This document shows, piece by piece, positions 27,478 through 32,176 of a stretch of 64,000 bases of DNA. Every line of letters begins with the position of its first letter. Position 1 is the stretch's first letter. The notes beneath the pieces were generated by a model. That model made no database searches. It was not told the DNA's origin and saw nothing but the letters and a program-made list of their open reading frames with translations. A program made the translations under genes and the position numbers. The stretch is from Chthoniobacter sp. (GTDB taxonomy: Bacteria > Verrucomicrobiota > Verrucomicrobiia > Chthoniobacterales > Chthoniobacteraceae): positions 111,973 through 175,972 of the forward strand of contig JAIOPH010000031.1 in NCBI GenBank assembly GCA_021414005.1, written 5' to 3'.

Positions 27478-27504
27478 AGCCCGCTGCCGGAGACGTTCCG
27501 CCCC

Positions 27505-28335
27505 ATGCTCCGTCCCCGCAAAAAATACACAGTCCACGACCTCCAGCAGCTCAAGGGCAAACGCGTCCTCTCGCACATCCACGTCAAATCACCCGAGGAA
27601 GCCGCCGCCGCGGAAGAGGCCGGCGTCGATCTGATGAGTTGCAGCTTCGACAGCCCCGAAGCGCAGGCGCGCCTGCCCGCGCTCGTCGCCGCCGCTCCGC
27701 ACAGCTTCCTCTCCTGCGCCACACCACACGGGCTCGCTTCGCCGGAGGAGGCAATCCGCGTCGCCTTCCGCGCGCTCGAGATCGGCGCGAGCAGCGTCTA
27801 TTGCTCGGCCAGCCCGCTCACCATCGAGGCGATGGCGCGCGAACGCATTCCCGTCGTCGGCCATCTCGGCCTCGTCCCGCGGCACGTCACCTGGACCGGC
27901 TACCGCGCCATCGGCCGCACCGTCGAGGAAGCCACGCAGCTCTTTCACCGCATGAAGGAACTGGAAAACGCCGGCGCCTACGCCGCCGAACTCGAAGTCG
28001 TCCCGCACAACCTCGCGCGCTTCCTTTCGTCGCATACGAAGATGCTCCTTATGTCCCTCGGCTCCGGCCCCGGCTGCGACACGCAGTTCCTCTTCTCCGA
28101 CGACATCCTCGGCGACTACGAAGAACGCCCGCCGCGCCACGCCAAAGCCTACCGCAACTTCGCCGCCGAACACCGCCGCCTCCAGCAGGAACGCCTCGCC
28201 GCCTTCCGCGAATACATCGCCGATGTGCAAGAGGGCCGCTTCCCCGAGCACGGGCATCTGGTGGAAATGGAAGGGCCGTTGCTCGACGAGTTGGTGCGTG
28301 CGATCGGCGGAGTGGGTTCGGGCGAAAAAGGTTGA
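27505..28335 (+). CDS. Divergent PanB-like protein (ketopantoate hydroxymethyltransferase fold)
   Basis: GHLGLVP, ELEVVP, GSGPGCDTQFLFSDDILG and the C-terminal DV..G.FP match PanB, but the GDS and K-x-E motifs are absent. Confidence 0.7.
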   Translation: MLRPRKKYTVHDLQQLKGKRVLSHIHVKSPEEAAAAEEAGVDLMSCSFDSPEAQARLPALVAAAPHSFLSCATPHGLASPEEAIRVAFRALEIGASSVYCSASPLTIEAMARERIPVVGHLGLVPRHVTWTGYRAIGRTVEEATQLFHRMKELENAGAYAAELEVVPHNLARFLSSHTKMLLMSLGSGPGCDTQFLFSDDILGDYEERPPRHAKAYRNFAAEHRRLQQERLAAFREYIADVQEGRFPEHGHLVEMEGPLLDELVRAIGGVGSGEKG

Positions 28336-28387
28336 GCGCCGTCGTGATTGCGTGTCGTCTTCGTTTCTTGTCCTGTCTCGGCAAACT

Positions 28388-29467
28388 ATGCGCCCAACCA
28401 CCGTCTTCGATTGCTTCTGCGGCCTAGGGGGACTCTCCCTTGGGGCTCAGCTTGCCGGATGTGAAGTCTTGGGTGGAGTGGATGCAGATGCCTCTGCTGT
28501 CGAAGTATTTGCTCGAACCTTTCCGAAGGCGCATGCGCTAGGACACGATCTCTTGAAAGAGAAGCCCAGCGCCATTTTGCGGAAGGCTGGTCTTGTTCGT
28601 GGTGACGTCGATATTCTCGTCGGCGGACCGCCATGTCAGCCATACAGCGTCAATAATCATCAACGCAGCACGCACGATGTCCGGTGTGGGCTTGTTGAAC
28701 GCTACTTGGAATTTGTGACGACACTTCAACCAGCTTGGCTGGTAATTGAAAACGTTCCGGGCTTTGCATCAATCGAACGCGGCAAGTTTCTGCGTACTCT
28801 ACTTCGTTCACTTCGCGCACGACGATACACTGCCGACTTCGTGCTCGTTGACGCAGCAATGTTCGGCGTGCCTCAGCGGCGTCGCAGGCTAGTGATTCTC
28901 GCTAGCCGCGATTCAGCCAAAGTTGAACACGCGATCAATGATCTGGCCGCTTGCCGATCCAAGGTGGTAACAGTCGGTCAGGCGATTGGTGATCTGCCAG
29001 ATCACCCATCGATAGAGGCATCATACTGCGGTCCTGCAAAATCCATTTTTCGCAAAGCGATGCGCGATCAAGCACAACTTAAGGTGGAATCTCATGTAGG
29101 GGCAGGTCTTGGCGCAAAGAACTTGCGGCGAATCAGCCATGTCCCGCCTGGTGGCAACTGGCGAGACATTCCTCGCCGCCTCCTTCCGCCTGGCATGAAG
29201 CGTGCCCGATTAAGCGACCACACCACACGCTATGGGCGTCTCCATGAAGGCAGGCCAGCCTATACGCTTCTTACCAAGTGCGATCCGCATTGGGGATGCT
29301 TTGTGCATCCCGTCCAAGATCGCGTCATAACTATTCGTGAAGCAGCACGCTTGCAGTCCATCCCCGACCGCGTTTCTTTCCCAAATTCTTTGAGCGATAG
29401 CTATCGCCTCATAGGAAACGCAGTGCCACCACTTCTGGCTAAAGGCATCCTAGAGCTTCTCAAATGA
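28388..29467 (+). CDS. DNA (cytosine-5)-methyltransferase
   Basis: FCGLGG (motif I), GGPPCQ (IV), ENVPG (VI), QRRRR (VIII), TIREAARLQS (IX), GNAVPP (X). Confidence 0.95.
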   Translation: MRPTTVFDCFCGLGGLSLGAQLAGCEVLGGVDADASAVEVFARTFPKAHALGHDLLKEKPSAILRKAGLVRGDVDILVGGPPCQPYSVNNHQRSTHDVRCGLVERYLEFVTTLQPAWLVIENVPGFASIERGKFLRTLLRSLRARRYTADFVLVDAAMFGVPQRRRRLVILASRDSAKVEHAINDLAACRSKVVTVGQAIGDLPDHPSIEASYCGPAKSIFRKAMRDQAQLKVESHVGAGLGAKNLRRISHVPPGGNWRDIPRRLLPPGMKRARLSDHTTRYGRLHEGRPAYTLLTKCDPHWGCFVHPVQDRVITIREAARLQSIPDRVSFPNSLSDSYRLIGNAVPPLLAKGILELLK

Positions 29468-30612
29468 AAAAACGCATCTCACCCAGAAAGACTGTGGAGA
29501 AACCGCCATCAAAGGCCGTCCTCGATATCGCAGCCTATCATCTCACGGAAAAGGAAAAGAGGCCCGAGCCAGAGAAGGTAGACGACCTTCATCTGGATCC
29601 GAAAAACCCGCGACTTGCCGATACCGCGCATACAGGAACTCAGGCTTCCATTTTGAAAGTCATGGGGCGCGAGTTCGATCTGCAACCGCTCATCGACTCG
29701 ATGTATAGAAACGGCTACTTCTACGAAGAGCCTTTAGTTGCAGTGCGTGAACCGTTGCCTGAACTCAATAACCGAGAAGTCCTTCTCGTAATCGAGGGTA
29801 ACCGTCGGTTAGCCGCCCTTAAGACCATCCTGCACAATCCTGACGTCTATACCGATGAAGCGGCGCGGGCGCGCTTAAAGAAAGTTCCGGTGATTGTTCG
29901 AGACGAGCGCAAGGAAACATTGCCGTTCGTCGGTTTCAGGCACATTACAGGAATTCTCGCGTGGGATGCGGCTGCAAAAGCGCAGTATGCTCATGACTTG
30001 GTGAAGCGCGGACTTACGCTTGATGAAATTGCCCAGACAATTGGGGACAAAACAAGGGACATCGCACGATGGGTTCGCACGCAATCGCTCCTTGAAACAG
30101 CGCACGAACATGGTCTGAACGAATCCGACGCTGCAAAGAAGTTCTATTTTTCCTACCTTTTGACCTGCACCGATGCTCCGGCGACGAAGCGGTGGATGGA
30201 ACTCAAGTCCGACGACAAGTCTGGCTTGGTCAAAAGTATCAATGCCGAACGGTTGGAGGAAGTGTGGCTGTGGCTGTATGGCAGCAAAGCCCGAGAGATT
30301 GCGCCGGTGATTCCTGAATCACGCCAAATCCACAAGCTTAACCGAGTCATCGCATCGCCGCGCGCCGTCCAAGAGCTTAAGAATACTGGAAACTTGGATC
30401 GCGCCTTGGTCGAGACTAAGGAGCGTGGAGAGTATGTCGTCGACACCCTCGTTTCGATTCGCTCATTACTTCAGGACTTGTCTGGAAATCTTACCGGTGA
30501 TGCGAAATTTGCGGAGAGCCTGGCCGACAGTGCTAGAATTCGCGATGCAAAAGTGGAGTTTGGTCGCGTTGAAAAGGCACTAGGCGAAGTTAAGGAGAAA
30601 CTCGGTTTCTAG
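29464..30612 (+). CDS. ParB/Sulfiredoxin-fold protein with HTH-like middle region
   Basis: LHLDPKNPR, LIDSMYRNGY..EPLV, VIEGNRRLAALK; ATGA overlap with the MTase. Confidence 0.7.
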   Translation: MKKRISPRKTVEKPPSKAVLDIAAYHLTEKEKRPEPEKVDDLHLDPKNPRLADTAHTGTQASILKVMGREFDLQPLIDSMYRNGYFYEEPLVAVREPLPELNNREVLLVIEGNRRLAALKTILHNPDVYTDEAARARLKKVPVIVRDERKETLPFVGFRHITGILAWDAAAKAQYAHDLVKRGLTLDEIAQTIGDKTRDIARWVRTQSLLETAHEHGLNESDAAKKFYFSYLLTCTDAPATKRWMELKSDDKSGLVKSINAERLEEVWLWLYGSKAREIAPVIPESRQIHKLNRVIASPRAVQELKNTGNLDRALVETKERGEYVVDTLVSIRSLLQDLSGNLTGDAKFAESLADSARIRDAKVEFGRVEKALGEVKEKLGF

Positions 30613-30615
30613 CCT

Positions 30616-31515
30616 ATGGTCCTTCCGGATACGGTCAGTCTGAGCGACGCAGTGGAACTTGCCGCTATGGCGATAGGAAAAACTCTTTCTGAAAAGGACC
30701 TCGGAAAGCAATTTTTTCCGAGCCAAGACATGGCAGATGTAGAGGCCGATCTGCACGATGCGCTGGAACTCGCGCGAAGCCGACAAGCAGCCTGCCCAGT
30801 AGCTTATCCCTTTGAAGTTACAGATCGATCGATAACGTTTAAGGGGCTAGACGGATTCAATCCGTACGCTTTTTTGTTGCTGGGACGCTCTCTTAACTTT
30901 GGCGGCCCGTTGGAATGCGAACACTTGCTGGATCGTTTTCGTGATCGATTTGAGGACGTGGTTTGCTGGGCGATGCGAAAATACGGATTTGCAGCCGAGG
31001 TGCTGAGTATTCCACGCGCTCCGCGGGGCCTACCCACCCAGCTTGCTCCGGCACTACGTGAGATAGGTGTACGCTTTCGGGAGCCGGCCGTGCTTCGTGA
31101 TGATCACTTGATGCCAAACGACAACGACCTCGACGTGGATGTGCTCGGTGTCCCAATAGTTGGAAATGGAGATCGGGGAGGCTGGCCAGTATTTCAAATT
31201 CAATGCGCAACGGGAGCAATCGGAGGCTTGGAAGCCAAGGTTAGCGAAGGTGCGACTAATTTTGCTACTGTGTGGGAGAAAGGATTTTTCATTGGCTCTC
31301 GCCTCCGGGGTGCCGCAACCCCTGACGATCTTCTTACGCTTCACGAGACTTATTGGCTTCGACTCGGTCAGGTGGGGTGGATAATCGACAGAACTCGCCT
31401 CGCATATTTGGCTTCGGGTGACCGCGACGTTCCTTTGCCCGACGCCGTGGTTGAATTTTGGGATCAGCTTTGGGCTGTTCGAGGAGACATTTCGTGGCAG
31501 ACCGGCTGGCAGTGA
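30616..31515 (+). CDS. Hypothetical protein, probable PD-(D/E)xK restriction-endonuclease-like fold
   Basis: RFEDVV helix, DNDLDVDV strand, FQIQCATG (QC variant of the E-x-K motif), IDRTRL; starts 3 bp after the previous stop. Confidence 0.55.
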   Translation: MVLPDTVSLSDAVELAAMAIGKTLSEKDLGKQFFPSQDMADVEADLHDALELARSRQAACPVAYPFEVTDRSITFKGLDGFNPYAFLLLGRSLNFGGPLECEHLLDRFRDRFEDVVCWAMRKYGFAAEVLSIPRAPRGLPTQLAPALREIGVRFREPAVLRDDHLMPNDNDLDVDVLGVPIVGNGDRGGWPVFQIQCATGAIGGLEAKVSEGATNFATVWEKGFFIGSRLRGAATPDDLLTLHETYWLRLGQVGWIIDRTRLAYLASGDRDVPLPDAVVEFWDQLWAVRGDISWQTGWQ

Positions 31516-31825
31516 TTTGCCACTCGCTGCGCCCCAACCTCCTCCCCGTTGCTGGTGCAGTTCCTCGTGCGTCTGCCTACTTCTTCTCTCCCGCGGGCGG
31601 CAGATTCGGCACCAGCGTCGGATCGTATTTCGCACCCGCGGAGACTTGGATGAGGGTCATGCGGACCTTGGGTGGGGAAGAGCACGACCAGGTGGGCAAC
31701 GGGAACTTTCCTCGGGAACCCTTTCTCCAAAGCCGGGCGCTGCCGGGGCGGCGCTTTGCCGGTGGGAATCCCCATGCACTTTCCCCTTCCGCCCTCCCGC
31801 CCGCGCTGGTAGTCATCCCCGCCTT

Positions 31826-32176
31826 ATGCATACGCGCGAGTTTTCCGAAGACGGGCTGCACATTCTCGCCATTGAGGGGGAGATCGACCTCGCCCGCTCG
31901 CCGGAGCTGCGCGAAGTGCTGCACGCGCACGCCAAGGCGCGCCGGCCAGTGCTGGTGCTGGATTTCGCGGGCGTGAGCTACGTGGATTCCTCCGGCCTTG
32001 CCACGCTCATCGAATACGTCCGCAAGGCACAGCCCTATGGCGGACGTTTCGCGCTGGTGAACGTGAACGAGCGCGTGCAGACCATTTTCGATCTCGTGCG
32101 GCTGGGTGAGTTTCTCTCCATTTATCCGACGCTCGTCGAGGCCCGGGTTGCGCTCCTCGCCCCCCCCGGCGCGTGA
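31826..32176 (+). CDS. STAS-domain protein (anti-sigma antagonist/MlaB-like)
   Basis: IEGEIDL, LDFAGVSYVDSSGLATL. Confidence 0.9.
   Translation: MHTREFSEDGLHILAIEGEIDLARSPELREVLHAHAKARRPVLVLDFAGVSYVDSSGLATLIEYVRKAQPYGGRFALVNVNERVQTIFDLVRLGEFLSIYPTLVEARVALLAPPGA

Follow-up and report, generated by a model that had tools for sequence, protein, structure and literature searches.

The nearest described system to the locus reported here is PD-lambda-5, which was found by functional selection, confers protection on E. coli from the majority of the tested phages and is termed by its authors a compacted RM+Abi system, combining restriction-modification (R-M) with abortive infection (Abi) (PMC9519451). 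A survey preprint counts PD-lambda-5 among the systems with HEPN domains (HEPN RNase), and a mechanistic study of it was not found in the literature searched. ParB-superfamily sensors coupled to nucleases are known from GmrSD, SspE and the Menshen protein NsnA (also covered in PMC4619093). For SspE and DndI, sensing of the self mark stimulates hydrolysis of a nucleoside triphosphate (NTP) and release from self DNA (PMC13251355, PMC11662687), and NsnA has been proposed to be a DNA sensor on the basis of comparative genomics (PMC12065111). Here we analyze a cassette of three genes in a 64,000-nt stretch of DNA from Chthoniobacter sp.; this whole stretch is referred to as the window, and all coordinates count from window position 1. 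The cassette encodes a C5 cytosine DNA methyltransferase (gene 1), a ParB-like protein (gene 2) and a putative nuclease (gene 3), which are listed with their domains in Table 1. It is a relative of PD-lambda-5, and we consider it fairly probable that it constitutes an R-M-like defence system in which the cutting half is formed by the ParB-like protein and the nuclease-like protein.

A first-pass annotation of the window had pointed out three tightly coupled genes on the + strand, and the open reading frames (ORFs) lie exactly as it had placed them. The junction of gene 1 and gene 2 is an ATGA overlap (..CAAATGAAAA..), and gene 2 is separated from gene 3 by a gap of 3 bp, TAG CCT ATG. Gene 1 encodes a complete C5 DNA methyltransferase, as evidenced by a match to PF00145 that spans residues 5-356 (E = 5.5e-51, 174 bits at a cut-off of 22), by 154 bits against TIGR00675 (cut-off 100.65) and by the PADLOC model MTase_II (E = 4.8e-89). 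The full set of C5 methyltransferase motifs ascribed to this gene is legible in its translation, with FCGLGG, PPCQ, ENV, QRRRR and GNAVP for motifs I, IV, VI, VIII and X, respectively.

For gene 2 there is no match in Pfam or NCBIfam, and the Pfam model ParB_N stays below threshold, with a 'faint' match for one homologue. The AlphaFold2 (AF2) model of the protein, with a predicted local distance difference test (pLDDT) score of 82, aligns with the nucleotide-binding domain and the helix-turn-helix (HTH) of ParB, Noc and KorB at a Foldseek probability of 1.00 (E = 5e-5); sulfiredoxin (Srx) is a weaker match, and SspE appears only at E = 0.56. On this model, gene 2 is predicted to have the ParB/Srx-superfamily nucleotide-binding fold previously assigned to it, together with an HTH. 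The alignment runs through the HTH of the three reference proteins, for which the model has helices at residues 166-181, 186-193 and 197-215 with an invariant I193 and G194, and beyond it a helical or coiled-coil domain extends to residue 380 and ends in a long helix. The motifs that had drawn attention to the protein, LDPKNPR and EGNRR, are present as LDPKNPRL (42-51) and IEGNRRLAALK (110-120, of the Box II GxxR type) and are invariant across the family: residues D45, N48, P49, R50, E111, G112, N113, R114 and R115 do not vary in close or remote clades, and the motifs LDPxNPR, (V/I)EGNRRLAAL and G(F/Y)(R/K)H(I/V)xG are retained family-wide, down to relatives of ~25% identity. Gene 2 would accordingly be expected to bind an NTP; note that the identity of the NTP bound by a ParB-fold protein is not reliably predicted by sequence analysis or AlphaFold3 (PMC12704722).

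Profile searches place gene 2 in phrog_3694 (E = 1e-58), and its residues 38-146 match the PADLOC models for PD-Lambda-5_A, of whose 440-500 positions only ~7-180 are covered. A further partial match links residues 66-336 to positions 53-330 of the 715 positions in PDC-M38A (E = 4e-22). No other PDC-M38 model matches any of the three proteins, and PDC-M38 was found in no paper in the literature searched; we rejected this identity, as the match is partial only and PDC-M38 is not a named or published system. Pfam gave no match to a ParB C-terminal dimerisation domain, and no ParA-type family is among the 25 listed for the 67 immediate neighbours; with ParA lacking there and the neighbours being different, assignment to the partition-type ParB proteins was likewise rejected. 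Neither Pfam nor NCBIfam provides a match to the DUF262 or DndB profiles, and the motif EGNRR stands in place of DGQHR or DGQQR.

Gene 3 yields no match in Pfam, NCBIfam, PADLOC, PHROGs or the PDB sequences, in searches run with the single sequence and with a 94-sequence profile; no PADLOC model matches it in any clade, and remote members match only phrog_3984 and phrog_14650, both families of unknown function. A full profile search at E <= 1e-3 retrieved relatives in 558 representative clusters (50% identity), all of ~300 aa and none with a Pfam domain. The AF2 model has a pLDDT of 94.8 and a predicted template-modelling score (pTM) of 0.92 and comprises two domains. The helical N-terminal domain gives partial Foldseek matches to the winged-helix domains of ROQ, E2F-DP, Rpa2 WH, GntR-type and Fur proteins, and the following core has the element order alpha1, beta1, beta2, beta3, alpha2, beta4, which fits the PD-(D/E)xK core. 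The best match in BFVD is an entry named 'Restriction endonuclease' (E = 8.9e-4, probability 1.0), followed at lower ranks by Mrr-domain, VRR-NUC, endonuclease I and PD-(D/E)xK entries, and the top matches in the PDB are mostly restriction enzymes and nucleases, namely MspJI (probability 0.89), VC1899, Card1, BsmI, EcoT38I, AspBHI, SgrAI, Bse634I and HamA.

Conservation in gene 3 was taken over 94-136 homologues at ~22% identity. Invariant or nearly invariant residues in the N-terminal domain are D11, E14, R56, Y64-P65-F66 and Y84; in the core they are F112-E113 in alpha1, D171 and D175 at or just before the start of beta2, Q196-C197-A198 at the end of beta3, K208 in alpha2, P236 and D258-R-x-R261. 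The FE helix, the D-x-D and the QCATG stretch singled out by the first-pass annotation are present, as FE(D), D-x-D...D and QCATG. The acidic invariants E113 and D175 occupy the positions expected for PD-(D/E)xK enzymes, and beta3 carries Q196-C197-A198 rather than (D/E)xK, so that with Q196 and A198 in these places the label 'atypical' is a fair one and the signature is a plausible, non-canonical variant. MspJI likewise has a glutamine where the acid would be, in a motif D...QxK. The nuclease fold is supported by the element order, the invariant acids and the restriction enzymes among the structural neighbours, with moderate scores and no sequence-profile match. An atypical PD-(D/E)xK nuclease is a probable rather than a proven identity for the modelled protein, which we would expect to cleave DNA.

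Among the three genes, genes 2 and 3 go together as a unit. As the alignment obtained for a gene 3-seeded metagenome scan was broad and held no stretch conserved enough, metagenome contigs were scanned with the gene 2 motifs only, and the test for co-occurrence is consequently independent of gene 3. More than 500 metagenome stretches (528) match the gene 2 motif and were confirmed by tblastn to be relatives. Of the 80 loci collected, 66 have 600 nt or more of sequence past gene 2, and in 63 of these gene 3 follows immediately on the 3' side. Close homologues of the two genes share contigs and are adjacent and in the same order in every close locus examined, and remote gene 3 members likewise sit after a gene 2 homologue. 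The pairing of genes 2 and 3 is near-obligate, and pairwise identities of the two proteins are correlated with r = 0.91 (64 loci), as would be expected if gene 2 and gene 3 form a physical complex.

A DNA methyltransferase gene directly abuts the pair in 28 of the 31 loci that have at least 1 kb on both sides, and in one more, L100, the methylase was masked by gene picking. The genes that the first-pass annotation had grouped in the window consequently do co-occur elsewhere, both as the gene 2-gene 3 pair and with an abutting modification gene. In Pfam terms, the 67 immediate neighbours of the pair include 22 D12 and 18 N6_N4 methylases, 7 UPF0020 proteins (a methyltransferase domain) and 2 AAA_16 proteins, and every other family listed was seen once. 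The 25 families listed for these 67 neighbours contain no ParA-type (CbiA/ParA) member, and AAA_16 is the only recurrent ATPase family in that list. The clade of the window, fully supported on a tree of concatenated genes 2 and 3, has a C5 methylase in 8/8 loci, which lies upstream and co-directional, upstream and divergent, or downstream and convergent; close loci include those of Opitutaceae TAV1, a Didemnitutus metagenome-assembled genome (MAG) and a Chitinophagales MAG. In two close loci gene 2 is conserved at 55-57% identity, as against just 23-24% between the methylase and gene 1, which indicates that the methylase has been exchanged. More remote partners are an overlapping N6_N4 methylase, a D12-class methylase and, in one branch, dndE-dndD-dndC. 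Over the tree as a whole, the pair has switched at least 8 times from one kind of modification partner to another, the kinds being C5, N6/N4 and D12 methylases and dndCDE. Near-constant pairing together with exchanged methylases identifies the pair as the stable core and the modification enzyme as an exchangeable partner, as would be expected for an effector that relies on a self mark.

The reading that we prefer assigns the parts as follows. Gene 1 would methylate cytosine at C5 in its target sites and so mark the DNA of the host as self, and genes 2 and 3 together would form the restriction half. With its switch domain, HTH and helical, presumably dimerising tail, gene 2 would bind DNA and, under the control of an NTP, scan for or report unmodified DNA, and gene 3, combining a winged helix with a PD-(D/E)xK-like core, would act as the effector that cuts DNA lacking the mark. 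Methylated DNA would be spared, and the cassette may be expected to protect its host against phages. That a ParB-like subunit 'gates or loads' the nuclease in a three-component R-M-like system had been put forward by the first-pass annotation; the three-component idea is supported as far as computation goes, by the folds, the pairing, the coupling to modification and the absence of an exact named match, and gating or loading is the role we infer for gene 2. The swaps of the methylase and the conserved HTH argue against a classic type II nuclease with a fixed target sequence. Two arrangements, both drawn by analogy, would fit better: target recognition might be supplied by the methylase, as by Mod in type III systems, or contact with modified DNA might reset the NTP switch of gene 2, by analogy with SspE and DndI.

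A more specific version takes the pair as a plug-in restriction module built on an NTP-gated sliding clamp of the ParB type, which would take the role of communication subunit in a restriction enzyme. After loading on DNA, gene 2 would close upon binding CTP or another NTP and slide, coupling distant unmodified sites to gene 3 in a manner likened to the ATP switch for one-dimensional diffusion in type III enzymes, and an encounter with the self mark would trigger hydrolysis and release. One core could in this way read unrelated marks (m5C, m6A or m4C, phosphorothioate) that are set by interchangeable enzymes. We put this version forward tentatively and regard it as unlikely in its full form.

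A number of observations weigh against a restriction half composed of genes 2 and 3. Two plasmid loci (L037 and L038) carry the pair without an adjacent methylase, and two others, L043 and L091, have gene 2 and a methylase without gene 3. Frequent swaps of the methylase family are hard to fit with a hard-wired, sequence-specific nuclease, and gene 2 keeps a well-conserved HTH across loci with methylases of just 23-44% identity. A nuclease fold in gene 3 is moderately supported: E is 0.056 and the TM-score 0.30 for the best PDB match, and a single BFVD match and none in the PDB falls below 1e-3. As Q-C-A replaces the canonical (D/E)xK, the lysine would need to come from the next helix (K208). 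In addition, ParB-like domains accompany enzymes of DNA modification, as in DndB, DpdB and ParB-methylase fusions (PMC10853773, PMC10164549, PMC12704722), so that gene 2 could serve the methylase rather than the nuclease. In one of the loci that lack gene 3 (L091, 5968-10217), the gene 2 homologue and a C5 methylase are followed by a 660-aa GHKL (HATPase_c_3) ATPase, in which the ParB-like protein may have an effector partner other than gene 3.

The association with modification enzymes is the starting point of one rival explanation, in which gene 2 belongs to the modification half, where it would load, target or limit the methyltransferase in an NTP-dependent manner, in the way of DndB or DpdB and in line with the ParB-methylase fusions, and gene 3 is an independent nuclease. 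Fusions or partnerships of ParB folds with enzymes that modify DNA are common (PMC12704722, PMC10164549), the ParB-like protein of PD-lambda-5 is paired with a methylase, and the two loci without gene 3 keep gene 2 next to theirs. It is gene 3, however, that has a fixed place after gene 2 and a sequence that gene 2 tracks (r = 0.91), whereas the methylase changes in family at least 8 times, in position and in strand, and is missing next to the pair on the two plasmids; we give the helper role a low probability. A controller of expression would leave gene 3 to act alone as an ordinary type II-like endonuclease and make gene 2 an oversized DNA-binding repressor or timer of the KorB/ParB type, which would govern the cassette upon entry into a new host in the way of the C proteins of classic systems. 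DndB, also of the ParB superfamily, is described as a transcriptional regulator of dnd genes (PMC10853773). Among the best structural matches of gene 2 is KorB, a transcriptional repressor of the ParB family, some homologues of gene 2 bear the name 'predicted transcriptional regulator', and an HTH that varies little across different methylases would be easier to explain by a fixed operator than by a variable target site. Known R-M controllers are small proteins, as opposed to the 360-400 aa of the gene 2 family with its invariant nucleotide-pocket motifs. Neither a sigma-70-like promoter nor an operator-like palindrome was detected upstream of the cassette, and the co-evolution of genes 2 and 3 (r = 0.91) and the coupling of starts and stops suggest a complex. 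Moreover, PD-lambda-5, a working defence system, has PD-Lambda-5_A as its sole protein besides the methylase, so that ParB-like module and effector are fused in it. On balance a controller appears rather unlikely.

A further alternative is that the pair acts in abortive infection or addiction, as a toxin-like module that damages the DNA of the host, or any DNA, when methylation lapses or an infection is sensed and that would stabilize a mobile element as much as it protects the cell. The term compacted RM+Abi for PD-lambda-5 (Vassallo et al., PMC9519451) and the listing of that system with those that have HEPN RNase domains point in this direction, the cassette does travel on prophages and islands, and partners would be more easily swapped with a nuclease that is not sequence-specific. 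Gene 3, on the other hand, is not HEPN-like and is unrelated to the C-terminal part of PD-Lambda-5_A, and near-universal coupling to a modification gene is the signature of self/non-self discrimination at the level of DNA, which leaves the Abi reading with a similarly small chance of being correct. That the three genes do not form one system at all, with an orphan methyltransferase lying beside a ParB-like protein and its partner that serve partition or replication control of a mobile element, is a highly improbable alternative. One plasmid homologue of gene 2 is indeed named 'ParB/RepB/Spo0J family partition protein' by PGAP. Against this stand the absence of a ParA-type family among the 25 listed for the 67 neighbours, the association with methylases in 90% of the assessable loci and with four kinds of modification, and the position of the cassette in a chromosome with no replicon functions nearby. 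The R-M-like reading thus remains the one that we favour.

In the window, the three genes stand out by their composition, as had been remarked in the first pass. The GC content is 0.51-0.56 across 28250-31500 and 0.63-0.68 on either side, and the dip is confined to the three genes and over by ~31550. The upstream flank is a gene of the PF02548 ketopantoate-hydroxymethyltransferase-like (panB-like) family at 27505-28335, and downstream lies a PF01740 STAS gene at 31817-32176, followed by genes for an Mla-type transporter. The cassette had been described as inserted between the panB-like and the STAS gene; its position and flanks are as stated, and congeners are without the cassette at both flanks, but a clean empty site could not be demonstrated in them, as the ispG-STAS interval and the surroundings of the panB-like gene are both variable. 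Examination of the borders revealed no integrase, no tRNA and no meaningful flanking direct repeats. Terminator-like sites number 4, with 4.2 expected in shuffles, and all of them fall within genes 2 and 3, away from the island borders.

Table 1. Features of the three-gene cassette and of the island that contains it, in window coordinates.
Feature	Coordinates	Strand	Description
Low-GC island with cassette	28336-31550	none	Evident from GC contrast; absent from congeners at both flanks
Gene 1	28388-29467	+	C5 cytosine DNA methyltransferase, 359 aa; presumed self-marking enzyme
Gene 2	29464-30612	+	ParB-like protein, 382 aa; start overlaps the stop of gene 1 (ATGA)
Gene 2, ParB/Srx nucleotide-binding fold	29566-29901	+	Residues ~35-146 (predicted)
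Gene 2, HTH DNA-binding region	29959-30108	+	Residues ~166-215 (predicted)
Gene 3	30616-31515	+	Putative nuclease, partner protein of 299 aa; start 3 bp past the stop of gene 2
Gene 3, N-terminal domain	30616-30900	+	Residues 1 to ~95, helical, winged-helix-like (predicted)
Gene 3, restriction-endonuclease-like core	30916-31400	+	Residues ~101-262 (predicted)

The interval from ispG to the STAS and Mla genes varies within the genus. In the window it spans 27478-31816 and holds the panB-like gene and the cassette, and in a congener (L120, G410:C59) the corresponding slot at 4977-8759 contains ~3.8 kb with five other ORFs, one of which, of 459 aa, has the look of a serine hydrolase or beta-lactamase by eye only (ASMTKP). 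In relatives the panB-like gene is located elsewhere and not between ispG and STAS. A second congener (L032, G410:C66) has a 596-aa AAA_21/AAA_15 ATPase of the AbiEii/OLD-type family directly after its panB-like gene (4042-5832). Because an ATPase rather than the cassette is found there, the site after this gene seems to be a collector of accessory, possibly defence, genes. Just past gene 3, a non-coding stretch of 131 bp at 31551-31681 has two copies in the same congener, of 90% and 86% identity (L032, 6810-6939 and 5904-6007, respectively), on either side of a PNPOx-family gene. The stretch is single-copy in the genome of the window, and a conserved regulatory RNA, a gene end and a recombination site are candidates for its nature.

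The cassette is in our reading horizontally acquired, and its distribution is patchy and mobile. It occurs in 2/401 genomes of the phylum of the window and as a single copy in its own genome, and members were found in Verrucomicrobiota, in Bacteroidota, on plasmids of Alphaproteobacteria and in P2-like phages. A second C5 methyltransferase of the window's own genome is encoded on contig C13 at 163191-164342, and the only Vsr (very-short-patch repair) gene of that genome lies ~8 kb from it at 172475-172681; the methylase of the cassette has no Vsr gene next to it. In phage Wphi, gp98 is the homologue of gene 2 (E = 1e-95) and gp96 that of gene 3 (E = 4e-36), and a convergent gene, mth, is annotated as DNA cytosine methylase. 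This trio occupies, as cargo, the space that separates gene A/orf91 from the phage genome end (L119, 96-3266). The 3.2-kb stretch is present at >=99% identity in 104 of 5,426 complete E. coli genomes (~2%) and in part in 36 more; E. coli W, a strain used in laboratories and industry, carries it at NC_017635.1 4338703-4341873. In E. coli the three genes are labelled by PGAP, in this order, 'ParB N-terminal domain-containing protein', 'hypothetical protein' and 'DNA cytosine methyltransferase'. Other copies of the cassette are apparently in defence islands: that of Opitutaceae TAV1 (L001) is in the vicinity of an SNF2 helicase, Vsr, PIN_12 and DUF5682/VWA, L016 has SIR2 and a TIR-NACHT protein as neighbours, and the copy on a Neorhizobium plasmid (L037) has DUF262, Z1 and a PD-(D/E)XK motif protein.

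If the R-M-like reading is true, a widespread restriction system owes its sensing or communication subunit to a fold known chiefly for its part in chromosome segregation, and should the sliding-clamp version apply, the pair would represent a new class of nucleotide-dependent restriction enzyme. The occurrence of one two-protein core with C5, N6/N4 and D12 methylases and with Dnd genes turns into a testable question how a single effector tells self across different chemistries, and the cassette offers a handle on the mechanism of PD-lambda-5. The version of Wphi in E. coli W is a convenient experimental model. Tools for finding defence systems see just an orphan methylase at such loci, and where it goes unrecognised, restriction of this type may be an obstacle to genetics in Verrucomicrobia and other hosts.

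How does the cassette compare with known systems? The trio was not described in the papers or family libraries searched, and Pfam, NCBIfam and PADLOC contain no model for gene 3. With the partition proteins ParB, Noc and KorB, which are CTP-gated clamps and its best structural matches, gene 2 shares the N-terminal fold, the Box II-type GxxR and the HTH, and it differs from them in having no ParA partner, in its C-terminal helical domain and in its nuclease-like and modification partners. Gene 3 resembles enzymes of the Mrr/MspJI type in joining an N-terminal DNA-binding-like domain to a C-terminal core of the Mrr/PD-(D/E)xK type, but sequence similarity is absent, the TM-score is ~0.3, and these type IV enzymes cut modified DNA and are not accompanied by a cognate methylase. 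A modification-dependent (type IV) gene 3, which the resemblance suggests, was judged unlikely because a modification enzyme is coupled to the pair in ~90% of the loci. Classic type II R-M systems have in common with the cassette a stand-alone methyltransferase beside a PD-(D/E)xK-like protein in a compact, mobile unit of patchy distribution. They differ in that a conserved ParB-type protein of ~370 aa is coupled here to the nuclease-like protein (63/66 loci), and in that the family of the methylase has repeatedly been swapped while the pair was kept, which by our reasoning would not be expected for a nuclease with a fixed recognition sequence of its own. Type II nucleases act alone, usually as homodimers and independently of NTPs, at the sequence that their methylase protects, and the obligate ParB-like partner and the exchange of methylases argue against simple membership in this type.

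GmrSD (DUF262-DUF1524), SspE and NsnA of Menshen likewise tie a module of the ParB/Srx fold and a DNA-binding domain to a nuclease effector. They belong, however, as does DndB, to the DUF262/DGQHR branch, with DGQQR or DGxQR, while gene 2 has EGNRR and finds its nearest fold in partition-type ParB, Noc and KorB. GmrSD, moreover, is of type IV and attacks modified DNA, whereas a methylase as the partner implies that modified DNA is spared here. The logic of SspE and DndI would, by analogy, be the closest mechanistic counterpart for gene 2.

No named system matches exactly: even PD-lambda-5, the nearest, resembles the cassette in no more than the N-terminal two thirds of gene 2 and, for sister clades, in the D12 methylase; this link lowers the novelty somewhat. 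The two have in common a ParB-like domain with an HTH and the motifs LDxxNPR and EGNRRLAAL, a methyltransferase partner and carriage on prophages and islands. A PD-Lambda-5_A-like protein aligns with gene 2 over ~250 residues (residues 11-251 of 485) at an hhalign probability of 99.3% (E = 5e-20), and the D12 methylases beside the pair in sister clades, which lie ahead of it in many loci, are full-length PD-Lambda-5_B (E = 1e-96 to 1e-111). The differences lie in the remainder. PD-lambda-5 has two genes, and its A protein of ~470 aa includes a C-terminal domain of its own, listed as HEPN, that gene 2 does not have, the remaining 235 residues being unrelated to gene 3; in its place, the cassette has a separate restriction-nuclease-like protein of ~300 aa after gene 2, and the methylase of the window is of the C5 type and not D12/PD-Lambda-5_B. 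True PD-Lambda-5_A proteins (L107, L039) match the profiles end to end, and the notion that gene 3 is the split-off C-terminal domain of PD-Lambda-5_A was rejected at an hhalign probability of 0.1%. In these same two loci (L107, 1301-5936; L039, 2-4492) a complete PD-lambda-5-like operon, consisting of a full-length A protein of ~485 aa and a D12 methylase that matches PD-Lambda-5_B, adjoins a gene 2-gene 3 pair, and two related ParB-based modules may there share one methylase. The fusion in PD-Lambda-5_A lends indirect support to the view that the ParB-like module and an effector work together physically.

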